The notes under the pieces are model-generated. The model was not told where the DNA came from, searched no databases, and was given only the letters and a program-made list of their open reading frames with translations. From a virus: a stretch of DNA of 29,459 bases. Every line of letters begins with the position of its first letter. Position 1 is the stretch's first letter. The position numbers and the translations under genes are program-made. Positions 1,846-29,459 of the stretch are shown piece after piece. The DNA lies in UHGV virus genome UHGV-0099905, one strand, 5' to 3'.

Positions 1846-2057
1846 CAGTGCGCCCCCGCCTCAGTCAATTGCTGCAACAACAAATAACCTTTTTCAGTCA
1901 GTTGATAGTTCTCAATACATCCCTTTGGAGAAACGTTGGCGACAAGATTCATGCGCTCCAGTTTGGCTCTGGTCTTCGGCTTCCAGTTGGCGTAGAACTC
2001 CTTCCACTTGCTAATTTCACGCAGGGTTTCCTTCTCTCGTTTACTTAACATGATCAT
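1845..2057 (-). CDS. Small soluble protein (70 aa), possible winged-helix-like DNA binder
   Basis: ORF in track; basic, with the segment YQLTEKGYLLLQQL reminiscent of wHTH wings; start lies inside the 3' end of the upstream 59-aa ORF. Confidence 0.4.
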   Translation of the reverse strand: MIMLSKREKETLREISKWKEFYANWKPKTRAKLERMNLVANVSPKGCIENYQLTEKGYLLLQQLTEAGAH

Positions 2058-2220
2058 CCTTAATCTCCTTCAGTGTGTCCGTGATATCTACTATGCGATA
2101 AATACGACCTCGCCTTTGCATGACACCGGCTTTTACGTAATCGTGGATACAGCTGGACATAACCAGACTTCCGATAACAATGCCGACGACTAAAAATACA
2201 AACATCCAGCCGAGCATCAT
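2041..2220 (-). CDS. Unlisted 59-aa ORF, predicted single-pass membrane peptide (MMLGWMFVFLVVGIVIGSLVM...)
   Basis: Hand translation; ATG overlaps the ligase stop codon (ATGA-type coupling); N-terminal hydrophobic helix. Confidence 0.4.
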   Translation of the reverse strand: MMLGWMFVFLVVGIVIGSLVMSSCIHDYVKAGVMQRRGRIYRIVDITDTLKEIKDDHVK

Positions 2221-3539
2221 TCTTTATCTCCAATACGATCTTCGGTATCTCGAAGACATTTAGGCCACTTCAGACGTGGATGACGCAAGCTACCATCTGG
2301 CGTTTTCTCATGGCAGTGAACCTCAACGATGCGTCCACGATACTTCTCCTGATTGTTCCAGATTTCATCCAGGTATTTATGCTTGATACCGCTGGCACGA
2401 ACGATGACGCCGTTCTCCAGACGAATCACTATCTTGCCTAGCGTATGCGCAAAGCCAGAGTCCGGATCGCCAGGCTCGAAGTCGATGACTTCACCGTCTT
2501 CTGAATCCTCGTCTTTCAGCTTCCACCAGCTGCGGGTACGTTTGAACTCGTAAACTGAATCCGGATCTTTGCCCATCTCTCCCTCTTCATTCTCGTCCAG
2601 TCGCTTCATGAAACGTTCGATGAAATCTTCGTGGCTATGGATGATGTAGAACGGATGAAGGTGGATATCTTGCGCATAATCTTCCACGCAAGTGTTGCGG
2701 AACAACGCCACCAGCATAGCCAGGCGCTCTTTCAGCTTCATACCGGTCTTCAGGTACTCTTTGCTTTTTGCTTGAGCACGCCACTCCGGTAAGAAGAAAT
2801 CGAAAATGTGGTAAACGGCACCAATGGCTTTCACGTTCTTCTTACGAAGCGCCGACACTGACTGGTTGAATGTACCTGCAGTGCCCTCTCCATCGAAGAA
2901 GATGTGATTGAAGCCGGAGAGTCTGCCCCGCTCCAGCATGGCTGGTTTAAGGTGATCGAGTGACGTAATCGGATTGCCGGTGCGCGTCAGGAAATTGACC
3001 TCACCCTCGTCCACGATGACTTCGCAGATAACCCGGAGACCATCGAGTTTGAGACTGCCGATCATTGGCCACTTGGCCTTTGGATTTGGTTTAAATGGGT
3101 ATTTGTCGCCTTTCTCCTTGTACGGAGACGCCAGCTGTACCTCAAACTTCGGAATTGGGTTTTTGAACACCTTGTTGCACAGGCTGATGCCGACACCGGC
3201 TTTCGGATCTTTCAGCAGGAAGCGACGAAACACGTCCTGCCCGTCAGCGCACATCGAGGCAACGAGTGATTCGACAGCAGCAATAGCGATGTTCCCGGTC
3301 AGTTCGCGCGCTGCCAGCTTCTCCAGCAGATCTACTACCTTCTGGTCGCTGGGTACGGAAGTATCGAGTGGCTCGGCCACTTTGTACTTCTTCACACCGA
3401 ATCGAATGAATGGATTGAGCATTAGCGAGACCATGCTCTGTTCAAATTCATCCAGATTGGCCAGCGCCTCTTTCTTGGCGTTGGTTCCCATCGTTTTAAT
3501 AGCATCCAGCTTGTGCTTTAGGGCGATCAGTTTTTCCAT
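2217..3539 (-). CDS. ATP-dependent DNA ligase, phage T7 ligase-like, with N-terminal extension
   Basis: Nucleotidyltransferase motif I KLDGLR, motif V-like RSWWKLK, and C-terminal ETPDGSLRHPR closely resembling the T7 ligase C-terminus (TPDGSLRHP) as recalled. Confidence 0.85.
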   Translation of the reverse strand: MEKLIALKHKLDAIKTMGTNAKKEALANLDEFEQSMVSLMLNPFIRFGVKKYKVAEPLDTSVPSDQKVVDLLEKLAARELTGNIAIAAVESLVASMCADGQDVFRRFLLKDPKAGVGISLCNKVFKNPIPKFEVQLASPYKEKGDKYPFKPNPKAKWPMIGSLKLDGLRVICEVIVDEGEVNFLTRTGNPITSLDHLKPAMLERGRLSGFNHIFFDGEGTAGTFNQSVSALRKKNVKAIGAVYHIFDFFLPEWRAQAKSKEYLKTGMKLKERLAMLVALFRNTCVEDYAQDIHLHPFYIIHSHEDFIERFMKRLDENEEGEMGKDPDSVYEFKRTRSWWKLKDEDSEDGEVIDFEPGDPDSGFAHTLGKIVIRLENGVIVRASGIKHKYLDEIWNNQEKYRGRIVEVHCHEKTPDGSLRHPRLKWPKCLRDTEDRIGDKE

Positions 3540-3573
3540 TAGTGTTTAACCTCCATCGGTCGCTCGGGAGTTT

Positions 3574-4049
3574 TCATGTGTTTTCTTTGGTTGCTTCTTC
3601 AATGAGTGCCGCGTACACGTCAGTGATCGACGCCAGTGAATCGGTGGGCTTGGTTTCGGATTTAGCAGGTTCTGTTTTCTTCGTGCGATGAATAAGACTG
3701 TCAATTGTCGCGGAGTTTCGCTTCCGGGGGGCGTTCTGGCATGGTCGTTTTGCTCTTCCACTTCTTTGATAAGTGAAGACATATCGATGAAGTAGAGCTG
3801 TTCGCCTTTGCGGATCTCTTCGACCATCATTTTCAGTGCCTGACATTTACCAGCAGCAATAGCCGCAGCACAGGACTGGAACGATGTAGCCGGGAGACGT
3901 TTTTCTTTATAGGCGAGGATCGTGTGTTGGCAGACTGTATAGCTGCAATGAGCCTCATGGCCGTTGAGCTTCACTTCCGGGCAGCGCAGCGAATAACCGT
4001 TGTTTCCGGAGATAGACGGGATTTTCGACAAATCTGTTCTTGTGGACAT
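3574..4049 (-). pseudogene. First gene of the ligase operon, split by a frameshift at a G6/C6 homopolymer (3726-3731)
   Basis: Track ORFs 3546-4049 and 3574-3846 are the same strand in different frames; the plausible N-terminal part (frame A) and C-terminal part (frame B, ...KPTDSLASITDVYAALIEEATKENT) join at the C6 run; each frame is low-complexity junk beyond the junction. Confidence 0.5.
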
Positions 4050-4067
4050 GCTTCTAACCGTAATCTT

Positions 4068-4083
4068 GTACTTACTTATTAAT
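4068..4083. promoter_or_regulatory. Motif copy GTACTTACTTATTAAT upstream of the ligase operon
   Basis: Gene-oriented sequence AATAAGTAAGTAC lies 18-40 nt upstream of the ATG at 4049. Confidence 0.45.
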
Positions 4084-4096
4084 CGCAGTTTAAAGA

Positions 4097-4112
4097 AGCC
4101 CCACGAGGGGCT
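4097..4112 (-). terminator. GC hairpin (AGCCCC-acga-GGGGCT) followed by a U-rich tract on the minus strand, after the 4130-4942 gene
   Basis: Inverted repeat seen directly; on the minus strand it is followed by TCTTTAA. Confidence 0.4.
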
Positions 4113-4129
4113 AAATGTTTTATCGAGGC

Positions 4130-4942
4130 TTACCAGGTCGCCCAGCCAGTCATTTTGTCCTGAGCAGCTTCGAACCGGTATGGGTCCAGTAAATCGTTGG
4201 CATGGTGGACGGCGTAGGATTTGGCTTCTTGTTTAATCATGGGTAATTCGTTGGCCAGACGAGCCACTTGCCCTGCAAAACTGGCGAGTACTCCGTCACA
4301 TGCCTGACCCGCGTCGACAATGATGCGCACCAGGTCTAAGTCGCTGCGGCACATATCGCAGATAATGCCGTATTCCACCTCACGAATGCGCTCAACGGCT
4401 TTTTTGATATCGCCACTGACCACCAATTCCAGCAAACCAGGTGGAGTTGTCAGATCTGTTACGCGCTCGGTAACTTCAGACTGTTCGACAATACTCAGGA
4501 ACGCCGCGATGGACGGGTCATCCGCCACACCAGCTCTGACTTTGAGCGTGCGAAGAGTTGCGTCGACAATATCCTCAAACCGTTCACCTTCATCGCACAC
4601 AGTCTGATTGGTGTAGACAGTCTGATTAGTGTAGACAATGCGACCGTCGTACCATGCACCGGTACTCACTTCGACCGTTGCGTCTTTCATCTCGCGAGAG
4701 AACGCCACAAGTGCCGCGCGTTTCTGCTTAACACCTGGCAACTCCGGGGACTCTCCAAAACGAACCCAGACCTGCATGTATTTCGAGCCTTCCGAAAGAG
4801 GTGCGGCGCTCACGGACGTGGCGATATGCTCCAGCGCAGTTTGGATCGCCTCGTCGATAATCTTCTGGCGCTCTTCTGTATCAATTTCTACGCCGGATTT
4901 GTCGATGATGTCGCAGACTAACTTCTGAAATTCTTCTTTCAT
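4130..4942 (-). CDS. Hypothetical acidic protein (270 aa), monocistronic with own motif-bearing promoter and terminator
   Basis: ORF in track; AGGAG SD 6 nt before ATG; no recognisable domain by eye. Confidence 0.6.
   Translation of the reverse strand: MKEEFQKLVCDIIDKSGVEIDTEERQKIIDEAIQTALEHIATSVSAAPLSEGSKYMQVWVRFGESPELPGVKQKRAALVAFSREMKDATVEVSTGAWYDGRIVYTNQTVYTNQTVCDEGERFEDIVDATLRTLKVRAGVADDPSIAAFLSIVEQSEVTERVTDLTTPPGLLELVVSGDIKKAVERIREVEYGIICDMCRSDLDLVRIIVDAGQACDGVLASFAGQVARLANELPMIKQEAKSYAVHHANDLLDPYRFEAAQDKMTGWATW
4601..4636. repeat. 18-bp tandem direct duplication, one mismatch, in-frame
   Basis: agtctgattggtgtagac / agtctgattagtgtagac; encodes duplicated hexapeptide in ...RIVYTNQTVYTNQTV... 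of the 4130-4942 protein. Confidence 0.9.
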
Positions 4943-4982
4943 AGCAACTCCTGACTAACAGATGAAAGTATTCTTTCAGAAA

Positions 4983-5004
4983 AATAAGTAAGTATCTACT
5001 TATT
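4983..5004. promoter_or_regulatory. Palindromic motif copy AATAAGTA-agtatc-TACTTATT
   Basis: 8-bp perfect inverted repeat, 6-bp spacer, 40-60 nt upstream of the ATG at 4942; a TATAAT hexamer abuts it in gene orientation. Confidence 0.55.
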
Positions 5005-5110
5005 ATATCGGGCGCAATAGTCTGCTATACGAAGAAGCCAGGCGTAAAAACCACTCGGATGCACATCCAGCACCCGACAAAGCAGTCGGACAGGCCAGCA
5101 ATGGGTGTTG

Positions 5111-5413
5111 TCACGGATAAAGGCGTACCTCAGTCGGACAGCTTTGCGAAGTACGCCGCGCTTTTTTTAATATGTCCCGTTCGTCGGTAACCCGCTTCAG
5201 CTCTTTCTGGAGACGGCGGATCTCGGCCTGAGCATCTGACTGTTCTTTATTAGTGGAAGAATCCGGACCGTACTTCTTTATCCAGGCATAAAGGCTGTGG
5301 GTGGTGATATCGAGACGTGTTGCAACGCTGGCAACAGAATAACCGCGATCAACAACCTGTTTGACTGCTTCAATTTTAAACTCTTCGGGATAACGCTTAC
5401 CGCTCATGGGCAC
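5111..5413 (-). CDS. IS3-family OrfA (transposase N-terminal HTH protein), probably truncated at the C-terminus
   Basis: Sequence pattern typical of IS3-family OrfA; ORF in track. Confidence 0.75.
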   Translation of the reverse strand: MPMSGKRYPEEFKIEAVKQVVDRGYSVASVATRLDITTHSLYAWIKKYGPDSSTNKEQSDAQAEIRRLQKELKRVTDERDILKKARRTSQSCPTEVRLYP

Positions 5414-5470
5414 CTCTCTTTAAGTCATCTTAAATGACTCTGAGGTGTCTATTAAACCTGTGGCGATTCA
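5111..5470 (-). mobile_element. IS3-family remnant: terminal inverted repeat plus orfA only; orfB deleted
   Basis: orfA-like product with HTH (MSGKRYPEEFKIEAVKQVVDRGYSVASVATRL...) and leucine-zipper-like tail; putative IR end TGAATCGCCACAGG (reverse complement of 5457-5470); no transposase orfB downstream; the C-terminus of orfA diverges after ...ILKKA. Confidence 0.65.
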
Positions 5471-5576
5471 ATACACTAAATCAATAAGTTGGTAGCATTA
5501 CCGATGAATTTGACAATTTAAACTAAAAAAATAAACTACGAAATAATTTTAATGTTATGTTTCCATAAACATGGTA

Positions 5577-6600
5577 GACTAGCCCATGAATCTCCAGACA
5601 GTTGGTTACAGCGCCTGCTGGGCAAAAAAACCATGGAAAACGAGCTGCTGAAAGAAGCCGTTGAATATGGCCGACAAAAAAAGTGGATAGCGCACGTGCC
5701 CTTGTTGCCGGAGGATGGTGAATAAGCCTTGTCAGTCGTTGCCTCCGGGTCTCACGTGCGCAACTGCATGCCATGGCCCGTCGGTCGAAGGGCTGGCAGG
5801 ATCGTCGGTGCAAGCGCAAGCCTGATGATACTGAAGCGCTGGCTCGTATCCATACCGTTATCGACGATCTGCCCACCTATGGTTATCGTCGTGTATGGGT
5901 ACTGCTGCGCAGACAATCAGAAACTGACGACATGGCGGTGATCAATGCCAAACGCGTATACCGCATCATGCGTCAGAATGCGCTGCTGCTTGAGCGTAAA
6001 CCGGCAATACCGCCCTCGAAGCGGGCGCATAGAGGGAAAGTGGCCGTTGGAGAAAGTAACCAGCGGTGGTGCTCCGACGGCTTCGAGTTCAGCTGTGATA
6101 ACGGTGAAAAACTGCGGATCACGTTCGCGCTGGACTGTTGCGATCGCGAGGCACTTCACTGGGCAGCAAGTACCGGTGGATATGACAGTGAAACCGTGCA
6201 GGACGTCATGCTGGGTGCAGTAGAGCGTCGCTTCGGTAACAGGCTGCCGACATCCCCCGTTGAGTGGCTGACAGACAACGGTTCAGCCTACCGTTCTCAT
6301 CAGACGCGTCAGTTCGCCAGAATGGTAGGACTGGAGCCAAAACATACGGCGGTACGTAGTCCAGAAAGCAACGGAATGGCGGAGAGCTTCGTGAAAACGA
6401 TGAAGCGCGACTACATCAGTATCATGCCAAAACCTGACGGGTTAACAGCGGCAAAGAACCTTGCGGAGGCCTTCGAACATTACAACGAATGGCATCCGCA
6501 CAGTGCACTGGGATATCGTTCTCCACGGGAATATCTGCGGCGGCGAACCAGTAATGGGTTAAGCGATAAAAAGTGTCTGGAAATATAGGGGCCAATCCAC
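5577..6600 (+). mobile_element. IS2-like element with internal deletion removing most of orfA (about 1.0 kb versus about 1.3 kb for intact IS2)
   Basis: Left end TAGACTAGCCCATGAATCTCCAGACA matches the IS2 left inverted repeat as recalled; it is joined directly to the last roughly 35 codons of InsC ([38 protein letters not shown]), followed by complete orfB; right end near GGGGCCAATCCA. Confidence 0.75.
5773..6588 (+). CDS. IS2 InsD-like transposase catalytic subunit (orfB)
   Basis: Very close match to IS2 InsD as recalled ([10 protein letters not shown]..., DNGS.YRS, rve integrase-core motifs). Confidence 0.85.
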
Positions 6601-6729
6601 ATGGAAATGTTTTTGATTAAAATAAAAAATATTCTTTTATATTGCCCTATCATTTTTATTTTTAGTAATTTATTAGCAAGAGATTGCGATCTCTTTTTTA
6701 GTTAAAGCAAATTAGTTAAGGATTAGTCT

Positions 6730-7278
6730 ATGAAACGTTCAGTTATTGCGGCTACTGTATTAGCATCTCTTTTTATGAGCGCAGGATCATTTGCAGCAGA
6801 AGGGAGTACAGAGGGTCAGTTAACTATTAACGGTAAAGTCACAGAGACTACATGTCAGTTCCTGAGCGGTAGTGAGAATACAACAATTTCGATGAGCGAA
6901 ATTGGTCGTGATCAATTTGAAAATGTAGAAGTTGGCTCCCCCGTTACTACTTATTCAAATACAACATCTTTACCACTAAAAGTTAAGTGTACCGGAGGAA
7001 AAGAACCAAGAATTACCTTCTCCAGCACCCAATTTGAAGGAACGGATTCAAATATTATTCGCAATACTGGTGATGCTAGCGGTGTCGGTTTCGCTGTTTT
7101 TTTGGGGAAAGGTACTGATTCTAGCAACCGGATTTCTGGTAATAGACCTATTAAGTTAACACCAACTACTAATGGTGAACATGAGTTACATTTTACGGCA
7201 CAATACGCAAAAACAGCTGTTGATGTGGGTACTGGCGAAGTTAGTTCTGCGATAACAATGACCGTTGTAACAGATTAA
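6730..7278 (+). CDS. Fimbrial major subunit (chaperone-usher pathway)
   Basis: Signal peptide MKRSVIAATVLASLFMSAGSFA, about 180 aa, first in operon before chaperone and usher; AGGA SD upstream. Confidence 0.7.
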   Translation: MKRSVIAATVLASLFMSAGSFAAEGSTEGQLTINGKVTETTCQFLSGSENTTISMSEIGRDQFENVEVGSPVTTYSNTTSLPLKVKCTGGKEPRITFSSTQFEGTDSNIIRNTGDASGVGFAVFLGKGTDSSNRISGNRPIKLTPTTNGEHELHFTAQYAKTAVDVGTGEVSSAITMTVVTD

Positions 7279-7333
7279 CATGATGTTTATCGGCGGCTTC
7301 GGTCGCCGATTTTCAATCGCAAGGATTGTTATC

Positions 7334-8014
7334 ATGAAAAAATTAATAGCCTTCTTACTAACCGTAACGGTCCCATCTGCGTGGGGCGGTGTCTATATTT
7401 ACGGCACTCGCGTTATTTATCCGGAACAGAAAAAAGAGATTGCAGTTCAGTTAATGAATGAAGGTGAGCGTAGTGCTCTTGTTCAGTCGTGGATTGATGA
7501 TGGCGATGCCAGCCTTCCTCCGGAAAAGATTAGTGTACCTTTTGTGCTGACTCCACCGGTAGTTCATGTTAGTAAGGGTGAAGGACAGCAACTGAAAATT
7601 AAACAACTGGCGAACACTCTACCTAAAGATCGCGAAAGTCTGTTCTTCCTTAATGTACTGGATATTCCACCTAATAGTGAGAAATACGAAGGCAAGAATC
7701 TGATTAAATTCGCGATGCAAAATCGTATCAAATTTATTTATCGCCCAAAGGGTATAACAAGAGTCGATAAAGAGAGTTTTTCCCGGATTAATATCAGACC
7801 CGTTGATAGAGGCATTAACATAAAAAATAATTCAGCGAACTGGATAACCATTCCTGAATTAACCGGGAATGCGAAAATTAATAAGGAGACACTACTGCTG
7901 GCACCCTGGTCAGATCAGACTGTCAAAACGACATCCGTTGTTAACTATTACAATGTTACTCTGATTGATGATCATGGAAACTATTTGAGTGAAAAAATAA
8001 AAACTGCCAAATAG
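7334..8014 (+). CDS. Periplasmic fimbrial chaperone (PapD-like)
   Basis: Classic chaperone N-terminal pattern GVYIYGTRVIYPE...; start moved to ATG at 7334 (MKKLIAFLL signal peptide) behind AAGGA, rather than the track start at 7280. Confidence 0.85.
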   Translation: MKKLIAFLLTVTVPSAWGGVYIYGTRVIYPEQKKEIAVQLMNEGERSALVQSWIDDGDASLPPEKISVPFVLTPPVVHVSKGEGQQLKIKQLANTLPKDRESLFFLNVLDIPPNSEKYEGKNLIKFAMQNRIKFIYRPKGITRVDKESFSRINIRPVDRGINIKNNSANWITIPELTGNAKINKETLLLAPWSDQTVKTTSVVNYYNVTLIDDHGNYLSEKIKTAK

Positions 8015-8031
8015 ATTATCAGGGATTGGTT

Positions 8032-10518
8032 ATGTCAAAGTTTAATTCTATTACACTGGCTATTCTGTCAGTATTAGCGACTTCGCATACATGGGCTAAG
8101 GGTGAAACGTTTAATACCAATTTTATGATTGGTGGTTTAAATGGGGAGAAAATTTCTAACTACCATATTGATAGTGATAAGCCGATGCCGGGTATCTACG
8201 CTATGGATGTTTATCTGAATAATCAATGGCGTGGCCACTATGATATTGATATTAAAGATGACCCTAATGCAACATGTTTATCCATGGAGCAATTAAAGCA
8301 AATTGGGATCCTCACTGAAGGAATTAGTATCGATAAAGGCGTAGAATGTGTACCACTTCGGGATGCTGTCCAGGGAGGCAGCGTCGACTATGATATTGGG
8401 CATTTTAACCTAAAATTAAGCGTGCCCCAAGCCTATGTTCTGGAATATGAACATGGCTATGTTCCGCCTGAAGCATGGGATCGCGGGATTAACGCATTAT
8501 ATACATCTTATTATGCCAGTCAGTATTACAGTGATTATAAAAACGGCGGAGATGATAAAAGTAGCTATCTAAATCTGAACAGTGGGTTAAATCTCCTGGG
8601 CTGGCAGCTGCATTCAAATGCCAATTATACGAAAAGCGACGAAAACAGCGGTAAATGGAAGAGTAACACGCTATATCTGGAACGTGGAATTCCACAAATT
8701 CTCGGCACGTTTCGCGCAGGTGAAATGTATACTGGTTCTGATGTTTTTGACTCCGTGCGTTTTCGCGGCGTGCGCCTTTGGCGCGATATGCAGATGTTAC
8801 CGAACTCTAAACAGAATTTTACTCCTGTGGTACGCGGCGTTGCCCAGAGTAACGCACTCGTCACCATAGAACAAAATGGTTTTGTGGTTTACCAGAAAGA
8901 AGTACCGCCAGGCCCATTCGCCATTGATGATTTGCAACTTTCTAATGGTGGGGCAGATTTGGAAGTTATCGTCAAAGAAGCTGATGGTTCAACGTCGTAC
9001 TATCGGGTGCCTTATTCATCGGTGCCAAATATGTTGCAACCTGGCGTTTCTAAATATGAATTTTCAGCCGGACGTAGTCATATTGAAGGAGCCAGCAATC
9101 AATCTGATTTTATCCAGGGAAGCTATAAGCATGGTTTCAACAATTTGCTGACAGGTTATGGCGGCACGCTGTTATCTGATAATTACTCATCGTTTGTTCT
9201 TGGAACAGGATGGAATACACCGATTGGTGCTATATCGGTTGATTTTACCCATTCATACAGCAAGCAAGACAACGGTGATGTGTTTAACGGTCAAAGTTAT
9301 CAGATTGCCTGGAATAAATATCTCTCTCAGAGCGGAACACAATTTTCTCTGGCGGCCTGGCGTTATTCCTCTCGGGGTTATCGTACTTTTAACGATCATG
9401 TATGGGCAAATAACAAAAATAGATACAATCGAGAAGACAACTCAGGCTATGACATTGCCAACTACTACCAGTATGATTTTGGTCGCAAGAATAGCTTTTC
9501 TTTAAATATCAACCAGTCATTACCGGAAAATTGGGGGTATCTGGCGATCAGCGGTCAATGGCGAGATTACTGGGAACGTAGCGGGACAGGGAAAAATTAC
9601 CAACTAAGCTATACGAACTCATGGGAACGTCTAAGTTATACCTTGTCGGTTAGCCAGACATACGATGAGGATAACAGCGAAGACAGACGCATTAACTTAT
9701 TTTTCTCAATCCCCTTCTCGTGGCGTGATAATATCACCGAAAAACGACGAGATTTATTTATCTCTAACTCGACCACATTTGATAAAGACGGCTACCAGTC
9801 AAATACTACCAGCCTCAGTGGTGTAGCTGGGAACCGTGATCAGTTCAGCTACGGGGCTAACTTTAGCCATCAACAACAGGACAGCGAAGCAACAGCAGGT
9901 GGAAATCTGATTTGGCGTGCGCCAGTGGCTACCATTGGTGGCAGCTATAGCCAGTCGAAAAAATATCAACAGATAAGTGGTAATATTCAAGGTGGTTTAG
10001 TCGCGTGGTCAGACGGGATAGCACTGGCTCCCAGACTTTCAGATACATTTACCATCGTCCATGCTCCGGGGCTGGATGGGGCTGCGGTACAGGGGTATCG
10101 TTACCTGAGCACGGATAGCCGAGGTTACGCTATTTATGACAGCCTGACGCCGTATCGTAAAAACACGTTGATGCTGGATACTTCTGACAGTCAAAGCGAT
10201 GTGGCACTACTGGGCAACCGTAAAAGCACCGCTCCTTATCGTGGGGCCGTTGTGATGACGCAGTTTGATACTGACAAACGTAAACCCTGGTATTTCCTTG
10301 CTCAGCGCCCGGATGGTTCTCCATTATCGTTCGGTTATGAAGTTGAAGATGAAAGCGGTAAGAATGTGGGCTTGGTAGGACAGGGAAGTCGGATATTTAT
10401 TCGCACTGATGATGTTCCCGCATCGATTCGCGTCTCGGTTAATAAACAGCAGGAACAATTCTGTACTATTACCTTTGATAAAGTTATCGAAGAGAATAAA
10501 GTTTATATTTGTCGTTAA
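8032..10518 (+). CDS. Fimbrial outer-membrane usher
   Basis: About 830 aa, signal peptide, usher N-terminal FNTNF motif, beta-barrel-type composition; ATG at 8032 behind AGGGA. Confidence 0.9.
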   Translation: MSKFNSITLAILSVLATSHTWAKGETFNTNFMIGGLNGEKISNYHIDSDKPMPGIYAMDVYLNNQWRGHYDIDIKDDPNATCLSMEQLKQIGILTEGISIDKGVECVPLRDAVQGGSVDYDIGHFNLKLSVPQAYVLEYEHGYVPPEAWDRGINALYTSYYASQYYSDYKNGGDDKSSYLNLNSGLNLLGWQLHSNANYTKSDENSGKWKSNTLYLERGIPQILGTFRAGEMYTGSDVFDSVRFRGVRLWRDMQMLPNSKQNFTPVVRGVAQSNALVTIEQNGFVVYQKEVPPGPFAIDDLQLSNGGADLEVIVKEADGSTSYYRVPYSSVPNMLQPGVSKYEFSAGRSHIEGASNQSDFIQGSYKHGFNNLLTGYGGTLLSDNYSSFVLGTGWNTPIGAISVDFTHSYSKQDNGDVFNGQSYQIAWNKYLSQSGTQFSLAAWRYSSRGYRTFNDHVWANNKNRYNREDNSGYDIANYYQYDFGRKNSFSLNINQSLPENWGYLAISGQWRDYWERSGTGKNYQLSYTNSWERLSYTLSVSQTYDEDNSEDRRINLFFSIPFSWRDNITEKRRDLFISNSTTFDKDGYQSNTTSLSGVAGNRDQFSYGANFSHQQQDSEATAGGNLIWRAPVATIGGSYSQSKKYQQISGNIQGGLVAWSDGIALAPRLSDTFTIVHAPGLDGAAVQGYRYLSTDSRGYAIYDSLTPYRKNTLMLDTSDSQSDVALLGNRKSTAPYRGAVVMTQFDTDKRKPWYFLAQRPDGSPLSFGYEVEDESGKNVGLVGQGSRIFIRTDDVPASIRVSVNKQQEQFCTITFDKVIEENKVYICR

Positions 10519-10528
10519 AGGATTTTTT

Positions 10529-11539
10529 ATGAAGAAATATTGGTTTTTGTTTTTGTTGATTATTCCATTTTTTGGGCAGGCGAAATGTACCCCTAAGGGA
10601 ACTTGGACAGCAACTCAACCAATTACACTGGACTTAACAACGGATTCAACAATAGTAAGTTTTAATCCCAACCTGCAAGGATCTTATGAATGTAACTCGA
10701 GGGGGGATAAGATGTATTTTGCAACAACGTTAGATGACTATATTGTTGAAATGAAAGATGGCTCCAGCAATAAGTCTATTTTTATTAAATTAAAGCTTGA
10801 GGCTGATGGATTTCCTGTAGAAACGAGTGGTTCGCTTCTGTCGCCTAAAACCTATTCTGTTGCTGATACCATTAATAATAAACAACTGAAGTTAACGGCC
10901 TCATATATACCACCAACTAAATATAGAAGTGATCGTGGTGAAGCGGTAGAGGGGGATTCATTCGAATTGAAAAAAGCGGCGGCTAATTTTTTGTCTGATA
11001 ATACATGTAGTTCAAATATTCTTTCATGGATAGCATGCTATGTTTTTGGATTGTTAAATAAAGGTGAAGCTTACGAACAAAAACTAACCATTAATGTTAA
11101 ACACAAACCCACAACCTGTCGTTTCTCGCAACCGACTTACGAAATAAGAATACCAGAAACAACGATAAGTGAAATGCTATCTGCCAATAACTCAAAATCA
11201 GGTTCTGTAGATCTGGTCCTAAATTGCGATAGTGTCTATAACGTCACGACTAATCCAGTGACTTTTAAAGTTGAGCGTGGTGTGTGGGATGATAGTGGAA
11301 CAATATTGAAAAATACATTGTCCGATGGTGCTAAGGGTGTAGGGTTCCAGATTTACAATGGTAATGCAACGACACCGTTAAAGCTGGGCGATACCCTGAT
11401 GAACAGATTACCTAAAATGGCGGCTATTCAGGAGCAGTACATCTTCCCGATTACCGCAAAATACGTTCGCGTGAAAGAGGAAGCTTTACAGCCTGGGGAA
11501 GTTCAAGGCCAGGCGATATTTGCCGTATCCTACGACTAA
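10529..11539 (+). CDS. Fimbrial minor subunit / tip adhesin candidate (two-domain size, about 337 aa)
   Basis: Signal peptide MKKYWFLFLLIIPFFGQA starting at ATG 10529 after SD AAAGGA; the track start at 10409 overlaps the usher and is rejected. Confidence 0.6.
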   Translation: MKKYWFLFLLIIPFFGQAKCTPKGTWTATQPITLDLTTDSTIVSFNPNLQGSYECNSRGDKMYFATTLDDYIVEMKDGSSNKSIFIKLKLEADGFPVETSGSLLSPKTYSVADTINNKQLKLTASYIPPTKYRSDRGEAVEGDSFELKKAAANFLSDNTCSSNILSWIACYVFGLLNKGEAYEQKLTINVKHKPTTCRFSQPTYEIRIPETTISEMLSANNSKSGSVDLVLNCDSVYNVTTNPVTFKVERGVWDDSGTILKNTLSDGAKGVGFQIYNGNATTPLKLGDTLMNRLPKMAAIQEQYIFPITAKYVRVKEEALQPGEVQGQAIFAVSYD

Positions 11540-11566
11540 TGAGCATGGTGGTTAGTCGCTACTTTT

Positions 11567-11600
11567 CACGTACTTTCGGAGAGAAAGTACGTGTGTTTTT
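11567..11600 (+). terminator. Rho-independent terminator after the fimbrial operon
   Basis: 11-bp perfect stem CACGTACTTTC / GAAAGTACGTG, 5-nt loop, followed by TGTTTTT. Confidence 0.6.
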
Positions 11601-11717
11601 ATCCAGAGCGCCCTAAAACCCCGTCCTTCAGAGTGGAGGTATAAGGCGCACTGGATAAAATGATGGAGTAGTGGGCAATTAAGCTCTATAATTGCGTACA
11701 CATATTGAGTACACGAG

Positions 11718-11945
11718 GTGTTTATGCAATCTATTAACTTCCGTACCGCACGCAGCAATCTTACCGAAGTGCTCAACAATGTTGAAGCCGGAGAAGAGGT
11801 TGAAATCACCCGTAGAGGCCGTGAGCCAGCTGTAATTGTCAGCAAGGCCACTTTCGAAGCCTACAAAAAAGCGGCGCTGGATGCTGAATTCGCATCCCTG
11901 TTTGACACTCTGGACACCACCAATAAGAAACTGGTTAACCGATAA
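11718..11945 (+). CDS. phd: Phd antitoxin (P1-type)
   Basis: [64 protein letters not shown]... is near-identical to P1 Phd as recalled; overlaps doc by TAATG. Confidence 0.9.
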
Positions 11946-12322
11946 TGAGGCATATATCACCGGAAGAGCTTACTGCAATTCATGATGCGAATATAAGCCG
12001 CTACGGCGGCCTGCCAGGCATGTCAGATTCGGGAAGAGCTGAGGCTATTATCGGGAGAGTCCAGGCCAGAGTTGCATATGAAGAGATTACCGACCTTTTC
12101 GAAGTCTCCGCAACTTACCTGGTGGCTACTGCGAGAGGGCATATATTCAATGATGCCAATAAGCGTACCGCGCTAAACAGTGCGTTGTTATTTCTGCGCC
12201 GTAACGGTGTGCAGGTATATGATTCACCAGAACTGGCAGAGCTTACTGTGGGGGCTGCGACCGGAGAGGTATCCGTATCTACTGTCGTTGCCACGTTACG
12301 TAGATTGTATGGTACGGCGTAG
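11945..12322 (+). CDS. doc: Doc toxin (Fic-fold kinase, P1-type)
   Basis: MRHISPEEL...[26 protein letters not shown]... matches P1 Doc as recalled, including the Fic-like HxFxDANKR motif. Confidence 0.9.
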
Positions 12323-12455
12323 TAAATTAATGGTACGCAAATACAACAAATTGTCCCGTGACGCGTTAAAGATGCTTCTTGATGGGGTGAGCAGCCGCAA
12401 GGTTATGAATCGCCACGGATAATTTAGACACTTCCGAGCCGTTGATAATACTGGT

Positions 12456-13640
12456 TCAAACTAATGCAGCTATGCCTTTTACCTTGCTTAAAAGTTCAAG
12501 CTGTCGTGAATAAGGTTTTGCGCAATAGTAGGCTTTGATAATCTGCCCCGGTGTCGCATCGCCGGGATCGAGTCCTTCCTCGCCCAAACACGCTACTTTG
12601 ACATTAAGACCGATACTGGTCAGTCGCCTGGCTGCGGCCATCGTGTTGCGTATAGCTTGCTTTTCACTATCCCACATCATAATCACATTACGTAATCCAC
12701 GCGCCTTGAGCGTCAGGAACGCGCCCAACTGATCTTCTGCATCCTGAGTGGTGTTACCAGATAGATGCATCCCGAACGTTCCTATCGGTTCCACGTAATC
12801 GCGTAATGTTTCTTCATCAAAAATAGCTCGTTTAACCCCCATAACATCGAACGCCCCCTCACAGACAACTACAGTCTGTTTGCCGACTGCATTGTGGCCG
12901 TTGTAGAGAAATTTACCCGATGCTGGCAGCTGCATGGGGAACAGATACCGGCGTTCTGCTGCACCGGTAATGTCACGACCCTGGAAGGTCTTCATCACGC
13001 CATCCAGATCGTAAACCGGTATCAGTATTCGCATATCGAATACCTGTCCTTTGACCTGGTCTGTGTACGGATCGACGTATGCGTGCTTGCCTTCGACGCA
13101 GTAACGCAGATCAAAGTATTTGGCCAGCTCCGGGGAAATCTGGCGCTCCACCAGATAATCAGGAAGACGACCGTCAATGGGGAGTTCGTAATGGCGCGGG
13201 AGAGCTACCGGTCCTTCCAGTTCAACCTTGCTGGCCAGCACGATCTCTTCCTTCTTCGGCGCCCAACCTTGTGAGATCAGCGCGTTCTGGACGTACTCTT
13301 CAAAATCGCGACGGGATTTGCCGCTGTAATGCTTTAGGAAGACCAGCTTATTGAACTGAATCTCTTCGGGATGATCACCTGCAAAGCATTTGCCGACACC
13401 ACTGGTCAGGTTGAAATAAACCTTCCAGTTTGAGCTGCCGCATACCGGACACTCTTTAATGTTGACCTCTCGTCCGCGAGTACTGACTCCACCATGACGG
13501 TAGATGATCCCTTCCATATCGAGCCATTGCTCAAAATCCAGCTCGGTCAGTAATTCTTTCAAGTCGCTCACGTTCTTACCCCTGTTTTTTGCAGGTAATA
13601 TCTTGATAAGCCTCGGTATTTGAATACCATAAAGGCTCAT
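12456..13640 (-). CDS. DNA primase (zinc-ribbon N-terminus plus TOPRIM-like core)
   Basis: CPVCGSS...C...H zinc-binding pattern and acidic TOPRIM-like segment VVVCEGAFD; start placed at ATG 13640 (MSLYGIQ) rather than the upstream TTG of the track. Confidence 0.6.
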   Translation of the reverse strand: MSLYGIQIPRLIKILPAKNRGKNVSDLKELLTELDFEQWLDMEGIIYRHGGVSTRGREVNIKECPVCGSSNWKVYFNLTSGVGKCFAGDHPEEIQFNKLVFLKHYSGKSRRDFEEYVQNALISQGWAPKKEEIVLASKVELEGPVALPRHYELPIDGRLPDYLVERQISPELAKYFDLRYCVEGKHAYVDPYTDQVKGQVFDMRILIPVYDLDGVMKTFQGRDITGAAERRYLFPMQLPASGKFLYNGHNAVGKQTVVVCEGAFDVMGVKRAIFDEETLRDYVEPIGTFGMHLSGNTTQDAEDQLGAFLTLKARGLRNVIMMWDSEKQAIRNTMAAARRLTSIGLNVKVACLGEEGLDPGDATPGQIIKAYYCAKPYSRQLELLSKVKGIAALV

Positions 13641-16136: not shown

Positions 16137-16904
16137 ATGGACGATTTATCGGTATACGCGAGATCATTGGATAAGGCTAAATACTATGTTTACTGTCTCT
16201 ATGATACAGAAGACAAGATGAAAAGACCGTTTTACATAGGAAAAGGCAAATCGACTCGTTGTCTCGATCACATCAAGTATCCCGATGACTCTCCCAAATC
16301 CATGCGGATCAAAGAACTTTTGGCTAATAAAAAATTAGGCATAGATATTCTTCGTCATGGTATGGATGAAACCACAGCCAAACTTGTTGAGGCGACATGC
16401 ATCGACCTTATGGGTGTCGGAGAGCTTACGAATAAGGTACGAGGAAGTGGTTCCATGATGGGCAGAATATCACTGGACGCCTACCATCACTTAGTGCTGC
16501 AAGAGGAAACTGAAATTGCTCCTGAGCACGCCGGTCTTGCCTTCCTGCTAAACAGCACCTACAAGTCAGGAATGTCCGCTCTGGCATTATATGAAGCTAC
16601 GCGTGGCGTATGGGCAAAGGTTCCAAGAGACGAGAATCTCAAATATGCCTACGCTACATATGGGGGCCTGATAATGGAAGTTTATCAGATTGAATGCTGG
16701 GTCAAAGCCGGTTCTCAGCAGTACTTTACAAGGGATATAGCTCTTGGCCCCGACACAAAACGTTATGAATTTGTTGGCAGAATAGCCGATGAGCATATTA
16801 GAAAACTGTATGTAGGCAAATTAATCAAGAAGCCACCAAGCTACGGCAGCCCTTTTGTGAAGGTTGGGGTGGTTAGGAATGAACATAGTGTTAGCGCGGC
16901 ATAA
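16137..16904 (+). CDS. GIY-YIG nuclease-domain protein with uncharacterised C-terminal domain
   Basis: N-terminal KYYVYCLYDTEDKMKRPFYIGKGKSTRCLDH fits the GIY...YIG...R...H pattern with a downstream Glu; about 170-aa C-terminal region of unknown fold. Confidence 0.6.
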   Translation: MDDLSVYARSLDKAKYYVYCLYDTEDKMKRPFYIGKGKSTRCLDHIKYPDDSPKSMRIKELLANKKLGIDILRHGMDETTAKLVEATCIDLMGVGELTNKVRGSGSMMGRISLDAYHHLVLQEETEIAPEHAGLAFLLNSTYKSGMSALALYEATRGVWAKVPRDENLKYAYATYGGLIMEVYQIECWVKAGSQQYFTRDIALGPDTKRYEFVGRIADEHIRKLYVGKLIKKPPSYGSPFVKVGVVRNEHSVSAA

Positions 16905-18303: not shown

Positions 18304-18573
18304 ATGTCCGCACTGAAAAAGCAGCGCATCGATTTGAGATTAACCGATGACGATAAAAGCATCATCGAGGAAGCTGCCGCAATGTCTAACCAGAGCATTA
18401 CCCAGTTCATGGTTAGCAGTGCATCCGAACGTGCCGTGAAGGTGATAGAGCAACACCGTAGACTGGTTCTAAGTGAAGAGTCCTGGAATCTGGTTATGGA
18501 TGCTATAAGCAATCCTCCGGCACCGAACGACAAGCTGAAACGAGCTGCCAATCGTCTGAAAAGCATGGAGTAA
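18304..18573 (+). CDS. tacA: DUF1778-type RHH antitoxin (TacA-like)
   Basis: 89 aa; RIDLRLTDDDKSIIEEAAA...QFMV...AISNPPAPNDKLKRA pattern typical of the family; followed 8 nt later by a GNAT gene. Confidence 0.8.
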   Translation: MSALKKQRIDLRLTDDDKSIIEEAAAMSNQSITQFMVSSASERAVKVIEQHRRLVLSEESWNLVMDAISNPPAPNDKLKRAANRLKSME

Positions 18574-18580
18574 TTTACTC

Positions 18581-19102
18581 GTGAGCAATACGACGATCGA
18601 GATTTTCTCTGGAGAGAAAGATTATGATCTAAACGGTTTTGATTGCGGCGAAGAGTCACTAAACGCATTTTTGACCAACCACTTAAAAAGACAGCATGAA
18701 GGAAAAATTCTTCGCGCTTATGTGCTTTGCACTAAAGAAGAAATACCAAAGGTATTAGGTTATTACACTTTGTCAGGCAGCTGCTTTGAGAAAGAAAACT
18801 TACCTTCAAAGAGTCAGCAAAAGAAAGTGCCTTATCGGCATGTCCCAAGTATCACTTTAGGCAGACTGGCTTTGGACAAATCTCTTCAAGGTCAGGGGCT
18901 TGGCTCAATGCTTGTAACTCACGCAATGCGTGTTGTGTACAATGCATCTCTTGCGGTAGGCATTCATGGGCTTTTCGTTGAGGCGTTGAACGATAAAGCC
19001 AGGGCGTTTTATAAAAGTTTGGGCTTTATCCAGCTGGTTGGTAACAACGATCGTTCTTTGTTCTATCCAACAAAATCTATCGAAAAATTGTTCGAAGAAT
19101 AA
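18581..19102 (+). CDS. tacT: GNAT-family acetyltransferase toxin (TacT/AtaT-like)
   Basis: 173 aa GNAT fold pattern (LGYYTLSGSCF..., QGQGLGSMLV) paired with a DUF1778 gene; GTG start. Confidence 0.8.
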   Translation: MSNTTIEIFSGEKDYDLNGFDCGEESLNAFLTNHLKRQHEGKILRAYVLCTKEEIPKVLGYYTLSGSCFEKENLPSKSQQKKVPYRHVPSITLGRLALDKSLQGQGLGSMLVTHAMRVVYNASLAVGIHGLFVEALNDKARAFYKSLGFIQLVGNNDRSLFYPTKSIEKLFEE

Positions 19103-21423: not shown

Positions 21424-21485
21424 AATAACCCTCTCAAATATTATGACAGTTTATTATGGGAGAGGTCTTAGCCTCTCCAACATTA

Positions 21486-24400: not shown

Positions 24401-24875
24401 CCTCCCGAGCTTTGTCTCCAGCGGCCTCAATCGCATCGGTGTTATTTTTATACCACTCAACGTTTTCGTTATGCTCGTTGACGATCTGCATTAGCGGCTT
24501 AACGGTCACTTCTGTACCGTCTTCACGCTCGATTGTCACATCATCCAGAGCGGTCAACCAACTGCGCATGGACTTGGAATCAGCCGACATACGCGACATT
24601 AGTGCAGTAAAGCGCGCACTAAACTGAGTTAAGTCGCCTTCATAGGTCGTAATGATTCGGCACGGAACTTTAGATTGAGTTTCGCCGGTATAAGGTTCTG
24701 AGAGGACAATGACCGTATCACTGGTTACGCGCTTGACCTCATACAACTTATTGTCAGGACCAATGACAATCATGCCCGGTAACACGCCGTTTTCGGTCAA
24801 ATTCCAACGTGTTCCGATGCCTGATATTGTGTCGCTTCCTTTTGTAAATGTAACAGTACCTTCCCTGTACCACAT
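21486..24875 (-). CDS. Side tail fibre protein (lambda Stf-like) with Ala/Ser-rich coiled-coil region, phage fibre repeats and C-terminal S74-type intramolecular chaperone
   Basis: KRAEDIASAVALEDASTTNKGIVQLSSSTNSESESFAATPKAVK closely matches the lambda Stf repeat as recalled; C-terminal SDARLK...VLPEAV chaperone/autocleavage pattern; start moved to ATG 24875 behind AAGGAG (the track ORF begins 31 codons upstream). Confidence 0.85.
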   Translation of the reverse strand: MWYREGTVTFTKGSDTISGIGTRWNLTENGVLPGMIVIGPDNKLYEVKRVTSDTVIVLSEPYTGETQSKVPCRIITTYEGDLTQFSARFTALMSRMSADSKSMRSWLTALDDVTIEREDGTEVTVKPLMQIVNEHNENVEWYKNNTDAIEAAGDKAREAAASAVAAAESANTAVEKASQASQSASAAVSSQSAASESAAAAEKSETNAEAAKEAAAESASVASTKASEAATSASSASASKDAAKLSETNASSSANAAASSATEAANSCKAAKASETNAKASESAAEQSALSANSSKSAAETSASAASVSADSASSSATSAEKSAESASLSAANATAKATEATKQATAAEKSAEAAKSSETNAKTSEDNAAASKETAAESASSASVSASSASSSKDEAARQASAAAESATTASTKATEAADSATAAAQSKNAAESAATRSETAAKRAEDIASAVALEDASTTNKGIVQLSSSTNSESESFAATPKAVKTAYDLANGKYTAQDATTSQKGLVQLNSDTNNSSESYAATSKAVKAAYDNAETRLRKDQNGADIPSKDTFAKNIGAAKAAGGSISIGGDSNNWTTAQFIEWLESQGAFNYPYWMCKGSWSYAANKIITDTGCGNIQLAGAVVEVMGVRDAMTIRVTTPTTATNGGTVKAQFTYINHGDSYAPGWRRDFNRAGDSMSGQLTLANMSQPLRSPGGGIFANDGNVYINKPGFAGWIDALFLKLTGGTLTGSLGFQNSNGKVFRVQTTETPSLNTYMQVWGNSSRPTVIEFKDDQGYHFYSQRNTDNTITMSINGEVVSETANAFRAVYGNYGFFIRNDGANTYFLLTNSGDQHGSWGPLRPLYISNTTGRVTLGNGVDISNGAVINGSVGLGVSNALGGNSIVLGDNDTGLKQNGDGILDVYANNAHVFRFTNGTLQSLKPLSVTGDITSSAWVYANSYSINSGSGAWIDMRSQNVIFGKNAVSTSSAQALLRQDHADRKFFVGGLGNSQFGFYMINNSRTANGTDANAYLQNDGTWVCGGNGNFNDVYIRSDARLKSNFAPIKNALSKVKVLSGLIYDKKENFQSSTVRREAGVVAQELQKVLPEAVSAYKDANGEDVLTISNSAQIALLIEAVKELAAIIEQKI

Positions 24876-24895
24876 GTTCTTTTTCACTCCTTGAA

Positions 24896-24919
24896 GTGTG
24901 GGCGTCCCCCCGCCCACAC
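24896..24919. other. GC-rich hairpin (9-bp stem GTGTGGGCG / CGCCCACAC, 6-nt loop) in the 5' leader of the tail-fibre gene
   Basis: Seen directly between the motif copy and the RBS. Confidence 0.5.
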
Positions 24920-24920
24920 A

Positions 24921-24944
24921 AATAGGTATATACTTACTTATTAT
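24921..24944. promoter_or_regulatory. Motif copy AATAGGTATATACTTACTTATTAT
   Basis: Near-identical to the 15867-15890 copy; 45-70 nt upstream of the tail-fibre ATG. Confidence 0.55.
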
Positions 24945-25012
24945 CCATGATACAAAATCCTTTTGCACTAAGAAAACACGCTATATACATTGCTGCTCAT
25001 TATTCCTATCAA

Positions 25013-28924: not shown

Positions 28925-29092
28925 ATGACGAATATTACTGACATCACCTACGGGATTCCTGCAGAAGTCTGGCCGCGCGATTACACCAACGTGGAGAAAG
29001 CGCTGATGTTCTGGCGCAAGTCTCTTATTCCTGTAAGGGTCACGATGGAAGATGGTCAGGTGTTCTGCATGTATGTTCAGGGTCTCATGTAG
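28925..29092 (+). CDS. Small hypothetical protein (55 aa)
   Basis: ATG 5 nt after the lipoprotein stop; no recognisable motif. Confidence 0.3.
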   Translation: MTNITDITYGIPAEVWPRDYTNVEKALMFWRKSLIPVRVTMEDGQVFCMYVQGLM

Positions 29093-29095
29093 TGG

Positions 29096-29459
<364 letters not shown>

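Follow-up and report, generated by a model that had tools for sequence, protein, structure and literature searches.

Three kinds of described mobile DNA bear on the locus reported here. Elements of the IS2 group of the IS3 family have terminal repeats beginning TAGACTGGCCCC (IRL) and TGGATTGGCCCC (IRR), duplicate 5 bp of target DNA, and carry overlapping orfA and orfB genes, an A-run motif for -1 frameshifting and an rve (DDE) catalytic domain. A 1229-bp IS3-family element, present at full length in pKqu-1 and p8BG and common on Klebsiella, Enterobacter and E. coli plasmids, has identical IR tips (TGAATCGCCAC) and an OrfA with an HTH_Tnp_1 domain; PGAP calls it only 'IS3 family', and we take ISSen4 or ISEhe3 to be candidate names. 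Finally, IS-bounded modules and decayed composite transposons of plasmids and phage-plasmids carry cargo flanked by directly oriented copies of one IS, whose inner ends adjoin it. The locus described here shares all of these features and, like such modules, sits in a variable part of a conserved phage-plasmid backbone.

The window, by which we mean the whole 29,459-nt stretch of DNA analysed, comes from an SSU5-like E. coli phage-plasmid and is 99.96% identical to pLAO59. Collinear DNA homology to the replication and ligase-primase-helicase genes of SSU5, and to tail-fibre genes, places it in the SSU5 (pHCM2-type) group. Homology to SSU5 (91% identity over 2000-5006) stops at 5006 and restarts at 12481 (87% from there), and in the cargo-free relative pRHB11-C04_3 the match, at 99%, reaches 5043 and picks up again at 12446, with two other genes between. 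This defines a variable slot whose neighbours are a conserved backbone gene (4130-4942) and the primase gene; in this lineage it is filled by a 7.4-kb accessory module (5034-12456) that replaces the roughly 1.8 kb found there in the cargo-free relative. A literature search on fimbrial cargo of SSU5-like phage-plasmids yielded nothing specific. The initial annotation had put defective IS copies at the junction of phage-plasmid backbone and fimbrial cargo, a placement that these comparisons support. We consider it about 80% probable that these relics are inert IS fragments marking the entry, by short homology, of a fimbriae and phd-doc module into the slot. The module and its edges comprise:

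5034..5470, minus strand: left arm, the IRL-proximal 437 bp of the 1229-bp IS3-family element, truncated inside orfB at 5034
5034..5043: left junction with the backbone, 10-bp microhomology GAAGCCAGGC common to the IS interior and the phage-plasmid backbone
About 5162-5169: A7G motif of the left arm, with a 1-bp deletion just after it at about 5160
5407, minus strand: ATG start of the left-arm orfA
5470: IRL tip TGAATCGCCAC of the left arm
5471..5574: AT-rich spacer of 104 bp, which seems to be the fimbrial operon's own upstream DNA
5510-5537: promoter-like TTGACA-16-TAAACT in the spacer (10 of 12 positions)
6730..11539, plus strand: yehD-type chaperone-usher fimbrial operon (major subunit, chaperone, usher, adhesin-like subunit), from ORFs and the annotation of near-identical plasmids
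11687..12403, plus strand: P1-derived phd-doc addiction module, followed by ~80 nt from the start of pdcA, which the IS tip truncates
12406..12456, minus strand: right arm, a 51-bp IRR tip belonging to the 1229-bp IS of the left arm, its end TGAATCGCCAC at 12406 facing the cargo
12446..12456: right junction with the backbone, 11-bp microhomology TAATACTGGTT common to the IS and the backbone, its end coinciding with the final base of the primase stop codon
12456-12458: primase stop codon

The two arms match opposite ends of one full-length IS (positions 1010-2238 of record L008, where it is flanked by a 3-bp duplication). The left arm is 97.3% identical to the full-length copies in L008 and L002, and the right arm, which is identical in all carriers examined, is 98% identical to the IRR end of L008. 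Between them they retain the marks of the IS3 family, namely an HTH_Tnp_1 OrfA, the A7G slip motif and TG…CA termini. No contiguous element with both ends and a transposase gene is found at these positions, the two fragments lying 6.9 kb apart with ~740 bp missing and a 1-bp deletion in orfA, and PGAP annotates the left arm as 'transposase, frameshifted, incomplete'. The opposite-strand IS3-family remnant with terminal repeat and orfA that had been read from the letters alone is thus confirmed by its HTH_Tnp_1 match (E=5.5e-20). It had been taken to begin at 5111 and to abut the IS2-like element directly; the remnant stands, but it extends to 5034 and is separated from its neighbour by the spacer. 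Its true partner, the 51-bp IRR tip, had gone unnoticed.

The sequences beside the two IS tips (…GTTA and ATAC…) form no target duplication, so a single insertion that was later permuted is unsupported. Circular permutation of one insertion would also need 5471-5576 to be a continuation of P1 pdcA, which it is not. Insertion of the cargo into a resident IS was likewise rejected, as the tips would then face outward and they are observed facing inward.

Between the IS tips the cargo runs in the order spacer, dead IS2-like element, yehD-type fimbrial operon and phd-doc-pdcA'. The spacer has no match to P1 or to the IS references. The phd-doc segment is 91.2% identical to P1 positions 88009-88725; pdcA overlaps the 3' end of doc in P1, and PGAP annotates the fragment here as 'PdcA, incomplete'. 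A fimbrial operon 85% identical to this one accompanies IS1 on F-type and P1-like plasmids.

We defined the microhomologies at the outer edges by a three-way comparison of the window, the IS (L008) and a cargo-free backbone (L017), which serve as proxies (97% identity for the IS, 99% for the backbone) rather than as the true parents. The probability that random joining gives an overlap of at least 10 bp is ~8e-6, and of at least 11 bp ~2e-6. Since the IS fragments are fused to the backbone at these 10 and 11 bp, the module was probably installed, or its flanks trimmed, by short-homology (illegitimate) recombination and not by transposition. A composite transposon would show two IS copies with functional outer ends and a duplication outside them; only inner ends are present.

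Within the cargo lies a second relic, an ISEc27/ISEc36-like member of the IS2 group, with the following parts:

5575..6599, plus strand: IS2-group (ISEc27/ISEc36-like) deletion derivative of 1025 bp (full-length element 1330 bp)
5570-5574 and 6600-6604: left and right CATGG, the 5-bp target-site duplication, as seen in the sequence itself
5575-5606, plus strand: IRL remnant
5605-5607: deletion junction
5677-5683: slip site A AAA AAG
5719-5721: TGA nonsense codon in the orfB frame
Up to the TAA at 5723-5725: orfA tail
5722-6588: open orfB frame
6558-6599: IRR

An IS2-like element with both ends and an internal loss of about 300 bp had been proposed and is confirmed, with limits that shift from 5577-6600 to exactly 5575-6599 and a loss of 304 bp relative to full-length relatives of 1330-1331 bp. 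Positions 5605-6599 are 99.4% identical to the full-length copy in L005. Over the part retained, the element is ~95.8% identical to copies that PGAP labels ISEc27 or ISEc36 and 99.4% identical to unnamed full-length copies, while IS2 itself is more distant than the copies so labelled. Imperfect terminal repeats of ~40 bp at both ends, the 5-bp duplication (full-length relatives also have 5 bp, CGTAT in L005 and CAGAC in L002) and an orfB with the DDE (rve) catalytic domain place the element in the IS2 group; its Pfam matches are rve (E=3.1e-19), rve_3 (E=6.1e-19) and HTH_21 (E=2.8e-11). The IRR is identical to that of the full-length copy in L005. Only 32 nt of the IRL are left, with two changes in the window copy: a G-to-A change common to the window, pLAO59 and p2017-01-4CC_1, and a 1-bp loss in the window alone.

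The deletion, whose junction was placed by BLAST and string positions, removed positions 34-337 of the full-length element, with GT microhomology at the break. The lost DNA held the inner IRL and the first 82 of the 121 OrfA codons, including the orfA start and the HTH. A transposase-made deletion was rejected because the loss is internal and starts at no IS tip. A C-to-T change has additionally created the TGA in the orfB frame, 12 codons past the slip site. The orfB had been described as intact; its rve-domain frame is indeed open for 288 codons, but it is closed off from the slip site by this stop. The complete orfA with HTH and the OrfAB fusion made by -1 frameshifting, on which autonomy depends, are absent from 5575-6599, and with both lesions OrfAB transposase cannot be made. 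PGAP reports the same pseudogene as 'frameshifted; internal stop; incomplete'. The earlier view that both IS copies are defective and non-autonomous is supported, and from its sequence the IS2-like derivative is predicted to be inert. The nonsense codon and the 5-bp target duplication were also missing from the initial annotation.

The distribution of the deletion junction is narrow. It is present in 23 of 72,556 plasmids and 24 of 5,426 E. coli genomes, a single time in each, always at the same locus and never on a chromosome, and an exact 30-mer scan did not find it in GTDB representative genomes or JGI metagenome contigs. A derivative confined to one locus does not spread. The deletion, the TGA and both backbone junctions are identical in the divergent carriers L019-L021, and the pdcA'-IRR and IRL-spacer junctions occur only in the same 23 plasmids; the fimbriae and phd-doc module of this lineage thus appears, from these sequences, to have arisen once. 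Our search for a donor, whether a full-length IS abutting the spacer or a P1-like element with an IS inserted in its pdcA, found neither, so the acquisition route is reconstructed and not observed. A 26-mer of the reconstructed empty site (spacer and downstream flank with one CATGG) is absent from GTDB representatives.

The reconstruction runs as follows. On either side of the module stands an end of the 1229-bp IS. The inward-pointing IRL end and IRR tip could derive equally from a donor in which the cargo lay between two direct copies of this IS or from a circle carrying the cargo and one copy, and we infer the order of the steps. Short-homology recombination at the 10 and 11 bp would have installed the module or trimmed the flanking IS copies. 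The IS2-group element would have entered the cargo by normal transposition, 130 bp upstream of the major-subunit gene, leaving CATGG on both sides. Its decay would have followed, the internal deletion taking the orfA start and the DNA-binding part and the nonsense codon uncoupling the catalytic frame from the frameshift site.

The inward tips are the exact inner ends of a direct-repeat composite transposon, and the same final structure would result if such a transposon (IS-cargo-IS, with two full direct 1229-bp copies) had entered the slot and two later slipped-mispairing deletions between the 10-11-bp repeats had cut away the outward portions of the IS copies along with what was left of the slot DNA. 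Selection for a genome small enough for the capsid might have favoured these losses. Deletion between short direct repeats is a classical mechanism. Against it, the outer ends of such a transposon, and with them any target duplication, are gone; this course takes three events against one double exchange, and no intermediate with a fuller IS occurs among the 23 plasmids and 24 genomes; we regard it as possible and rather unlikely. Far less can be said for a reading in which the orfA remnant at 5111-5470 and a similar, probably intact IS at 29096 act as homologous repeats, so that the 23.6 kb between 5470 and 29096 can invert or be deleted and the relics are a recombination scar. The relics do sit at the backbone/cargo edge, and both elements are IS3-family, lie on the minus strand and give Pfam matches (HTH_Tnp_1 and rve). 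The distal element, however, is a different IS:

29088..29459, minus strand: IRR and orfB 3' end of an unrelated IS3-family element, inside a Flag1_repress-type regulator gene and continuing past the end of the window

It is 98.2% identical to the element in L012, and the full-length relatives L012 (distal) and L008 (1229-bp IS) have no significant blastn similarity, only a 56-bp stretch at 73%; the OrfB C-termini of the two elements are 44% identical as proteins. In three near-identical plasmids (pLAO59, p2017-01-4CC_1 and pYY76-1-1) all that is left of the supposedly intact copy is a stump of 885 bp, cut off by ISKpn26. There is no overlap between the portions that survive (the orfA end at 5034-5470, the orfB end distally), and a self-BLAST of the window gave no internal repeats. 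The initial annotation had itself named unrelatedness of the two segments as the result that would tell against it, and at the DNA level they are unrelated. With no DNA in common there is no substrate for inversion or deletion, and because both elements lie on the minus strand inversion is excluded in any case, so that we give this reading almost no credence. Judged by their sequences, none of the relics should be able to transpose by itself, none shares sequence with another or with the IS at about 29088, and they would offer no substrate for homologous rearrangement.

Two further readings give the IS2-like relic a present role. In the first it would still be a live non-autonomous element, a mini-IS or something like a MITE, which either moves in trans with the help of full-length ISEc27/ISEc36-type copies or makes an N-truncated transposase from the ATG at 5773. 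In favour of this, its IRR is complete, 32 nt of its IRL remain, it has a target duplication and its rve-domain frame is unbroken; enterobacterial plasmids also commonly carry full-length relatives. A mobilisable element would leave several copies that share the junction at different loci, and none were found: wherever the collections searched contain the junction it is at one locus, the IRL has been both shortened and mutated, and IS3-family transposases act preferentially in cis. The truncated transposase, which the initial annotation had put forward, is unsupported; a protein from 5773 would be without the end-recognising, DNA-binding OrfA part, and the fusion frame is closed by the TGA. 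Continued mobility is therefore very improbable. Retention for expression of the fimbrial operon, with the relic either cutting the operon off from its native promoter or contributing, at its right end, the -35 box of a hybrid promoter, seems doubtful to us. IS2 insertions that create hybrid promoters are known; 130 bp separate the relic from the downstream major-subunit start, towards which it reads, and a promoter-like TCCACA-16-TAAAAT spans the IRR tip (6596-6623), with a better candidate upstream of the IS in the spacer. The number of promoter-like sites, however, is not above expectation (3 found against 2.2 ± 1.6 after shuffling), and the junction region differs in carriers L019 and L020. 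In a wider reading, the slot between the gene at 4130-4942 and the primase gene might be a recurrent cargo-exchange site of SSU5-like elements, at which cassettes are swapped by short-homology double exchange over 10-11 bp, perhaps through a phage-plasmid-encoded annealing recombinase and with the IS giving the donor-side homology, while the dead IS2-like element acts as a promoter or insulator that sets fimbrial operon expression; taken jointly, this is speculative and improbable.

Under our preferred reading, inert IS fragments left by short-homology entry, the feature is ordinary mobile-element archaeology, and its value lies mostly in annotation and history. Three IS relics obtain exact boundaries, and the predicted 23.6-kb rearrangement can be dropped from what long-read data would be searched for. 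The fimbriae and phd-doc module would now be fixed where it is, lacking both transposable ends and repeats through which it could be excised. The locus would also illustrate cleanly how accessory DNA can enter a phage-plasmid through short-homology joining inside an IS rather than by transposition, in keeping with the current picture of cargo exchange between phage-plasmids and plasmids.

Unlike other IS2-group members, the element at 5575-6599 measures 1025 rather than 1330-1331 bp, is without positions 34-337, has a mutated IRL and a nonsense codon between slip site and catalytic domain, and exists as a single fixed copy. The 1229-bp element keeps 97-98% identity to its full-length copies over 5034-5470 and 12406-12456, whereas the window copy is split into non-overlapping fragments whose tips face each other across the cargo, with ~740 bp (most of orfB) gone and orfA frameshifted. 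In contrast to IS-bounded modules and decayed composite transposons, the module is without outer IS ends and its joints are 10-11-bp IS-internal microhomologies, and it is therefore unable to move as a transposon.

The window belongs to an E. coli phage-plasmid of the SSU5-like (pHCM2-type) kind: it matches pLAO59 (NZ_OP242238.1) at 99.96% identity across 29.4 kb and is collinear with p2017-01-4CC_1 and pYY76-1-1. DNA homology to phage SSU5 (87-91%) ends at 5006 and restarts at 12481, the corresponding SSU5 interval being one hypothetical gene, and the cargo-free E. coli plasmid pRHB11-C04_3 shows 99% homology up to 5043 and again from 12446, with about 1.8 kb in its slot (a 414-nt gene and a sel1-repeat gene). 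Together, these comparisons place the IS relics at the left border of a slot with variable cargo, organized as follows:

4130-4942, minus strand: conserved backbone gene left of the slot
5034-5470, minus strand: orfA remnant of a 1229-bp IS3-family element (437 bp, 97.3% identity), with its left-repeat tip TGAATCGCCAC at 5470 and its orfA (Pfam HTH_Tnp_1) starting at ATG 5407
5471-12405: cargo, comprising a spacer, the dead IS2-like element, a yehD-type fimbrial operon (6730-11539) and phd-doc
5570-5574 and 6600-6604: 5-bp direct repeat CATGG flanking the IS2-like element
5575-6599, plus strand: IS2-like element, 1025 bp
12406-12456: right-repeat tip TGAATCGCCACGG… of the same 1229-bp element (51 bp, 98% identity to the full-length copy)
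12456-12458: stop codon of the primase gene right of the slot
~29088, minus strand: tip of the IS at the window end (98% identity to a full-length IS on p03_3013-1)

The initial annotation had rightly recognized two defective IS relics, IS3-family and IS2-like, whose boundaries are corrected here; they lie side by side, separated by a 104-bp AT-rich spacer rather than directly adjacent. It credited the IS2-like element with both ends, a loss of roughly 300 bp and an intact orfB, of which the first two hold and the last is right only in part. The CATGG flank has the duplication size typical of the group, and full-length 1330-bp copies from Citrobacter and Klebsiella plasmids match 5605-6599 at 99.4% identity (the element is ~95.8% identical to 1331-bp copies labelled ISEc27 or ISEc36 family by PGAP). 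Positions 34-337 of the full-length element (304 bp) are missing, with a GT dinucleotide common to both sides at the joint (5605-5606), so that orfA has lost its start and 82 of its 121 codons, and the left repeat its inner part. At 5677-5683 the slip site A AAA AAG persists, but 12 codons past it a C-to-T change, silent in the orfA frame, closes the orfB frame with a TGA (5719-5721), so an OrfAB fusion cannot be completed and PGAP flags an internal stop. Beyond this codon 288 codons of the rve-domain frame stay open (Pfam rve, rve_3, HTH_21). A 57-codon ORF (5552-5725) begins in the spacer, crosses the left repeat and enters the orfA tail, and has no Pfam match. The left repeat carries a G-to-A change otherwise found only in pLAO59 and p2017-01-4CC_1, and a 1-bp loss seen in the window copy alone.

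The deletion-junction sequence occurs in 23 of 72,556 plasmids and in 24 of 5,426 complete E. coli genomes, as one copy per record, plasmid-borne and at a single locus every time; exact-match scans of GTDB representative genomes and JGI metagenome contigs found none. A mobile mini-IS would be expected at more than one place, and this reading was rejected on that distribution. Three divergent carriers have the same deletion, TGA and adjoining junctions, so the element had died before their lineages split and is a fixed relic. Two divergent carriers, pYPE3-114k and pTAir-3, show clustered differences from the window across 6471-7300, spanning the right end of the relic, the next 130 bp (which differ by 13%) and the fimbrial operon start, and are missing four bases from the right target duplication; this suggests that the allele around the major fimbrial subunit was replaced.

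The second relic was compared with a full-length copy of the 1229-bp element (positions 1010-2238 of its record, with a 3-bp duplication GAC). Besides orfA it holds the A7G motif and ~130 bp of orfB, and a 1-bp deletion right after the motif alters the final OrfA residues. It is apparently mosaic: 5034-5159 matches a fragment beside groEL on an NDM-1 plasmid at 100% identity and 5160-5470 matches pieces on other E. coli plasmids at 99%, against just 97% overall for the best full-length copy. Its true partner, which the initial annotation overlooked, is 12406-12456, which cuts a P1-derived phd-doc-pdcA' segment (P1 homology 11687-12403). Read left to right, 5034-5470 runs from IS interior to IRL tip and 12406-12456 from IRR tip to IS interior, so both tips face the cargo. 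This is the geometry given by two direct IS copies with the cargo between their inner ends, or by a circular donor carrying one IS. Insertion of the cargo into a resident IS was rejected, as it would leave the opposite tip geometry. The bases beside the tips (GTTA, ATAC) form no duplication, and the sequence from 5471 on is not pdcA.

When the window is set against both the IS and the cargo-free backbone, the IS and backbone homologies overlap by 10 bp at the left joint (GAAGCCAGGC, 5034-5043) and by 11 bp at the right (TAATACTGGTT, 12446-12456). Such overlaps have probabilities of ~8e-6 and ~2e-6 under homology-independent joining, so both joints are products of short-homology recombination. 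A double exchange could have put the module in place of the resident 1.8 kb; alternatively, two later deletions between short direct repeats could have trimmed full flanking IS copies. The data fit double exchange and later trimming alike, and a search for an intermediate or donor structure for the module found none. The right joint stops precisely at the primase stop codon, which leaves the primase gene intact.

The initial annotation also placed a similar IS3-family copy at 29096 and proposed a 23.6-kb inversion or deletion between the copies; its location of the relics at the backbone/cargo junction stands, and the homologous rearrangement falls away. The IS on p03_3013-1 has no significant nucleotide similarity to the 1229-bp element (the OrfB C-termini of the window-end IS and the latter are 44% identical), and no internal repeats occur anywhere in the window. 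In pLAO59, p2017-01-4CC_1 and pYY76-1-1, 885 bp of the window-end IS are left before ISKpn26; the window's copy, readable only to 29459, is likely truncated in the same way given the 99.96% identity to pLAO59. A homologous 23.6-kb rearrangement thus has no substrate, and because the orfA remnant and this IS share a strand, inversion is excluded regardless. The IS interrupts a Flag1_repress-family gene (FljA-like repressor of phase-1 flagellin; 28925-29092, 55 codons left) that is whole (528 nt) in IS-free carriers such as pEC21Z137-115K.

Elsewhere, a 9-bp indel, the sole length difference from pLAO59 across 29.4 kb, lies at ~21480-24970 around the tail-fibre and receptor-recognition genes, as judged from ORF/annotation coordinate offsets. 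A single 506-codon ORF at 25013-26533 (minus strand) joins a ParB N-terminal domain (aa 14-103) to a phage tail-tip domain (aa 215-350), annotated as partial ParB and partial DUF1983 in near-identical plasmids; it looks like parB joined to a tail gene by deletion, so the phage-plasmid may no longer function properly as a phage. Annotation of near-identical plasmids also gives the 3' part of a PAS-domain methyl-accepting chemotaxis protein gene (1-1004), a GIY-YIG (LEM-3-like) nuclease gene (16137-16904) and a DUF1778/GNAT toxin-antitoxin pair (18304-19102).

Most simply, the relics would be inert. The HTH-bearing OrfA of the 1229-bp element is nearly intact and could still be produced. The fimbrial major-subunit gene lies 130 bp downstream of the IS2-like relic, in the direction in which the relic reads. 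A promoter-like site is present upstream of the relic (5510-5537, 10/12 positions) and a weaker one spans its right tip (6596-6623), in counts no better than shuffled sequence; an influence on the fimbrial gene is conceivable.

Related operons recur beside IS elements. An 85%-identical yehD-type operon lies next to IS1 on pEC416_1 and pE148-2 (an F-type and a P1-like plasmid), and another on pCP53-113k (~113 kb, 85%) sits beside repA, with an IS2-group element and a 193-bp IRR piece of the 1229-bp element after it, showing that the link is recurrent and the operon a habitual IS-associated cargo. Corrections worth keeping concern the exact positions where the relics begin and end, the nonsense codon, the pairing with 12406-12456, the microhomology joints to the backbone, and the 23.6-kb rearrangement, which is no longer predicted. 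Everything falls into known categories, with little that is new: a deletion derivative of an IS2-group element and split fragments of an IS3-family element, in an IS-bounded accessory module within the variable region of a phage-plasmid.
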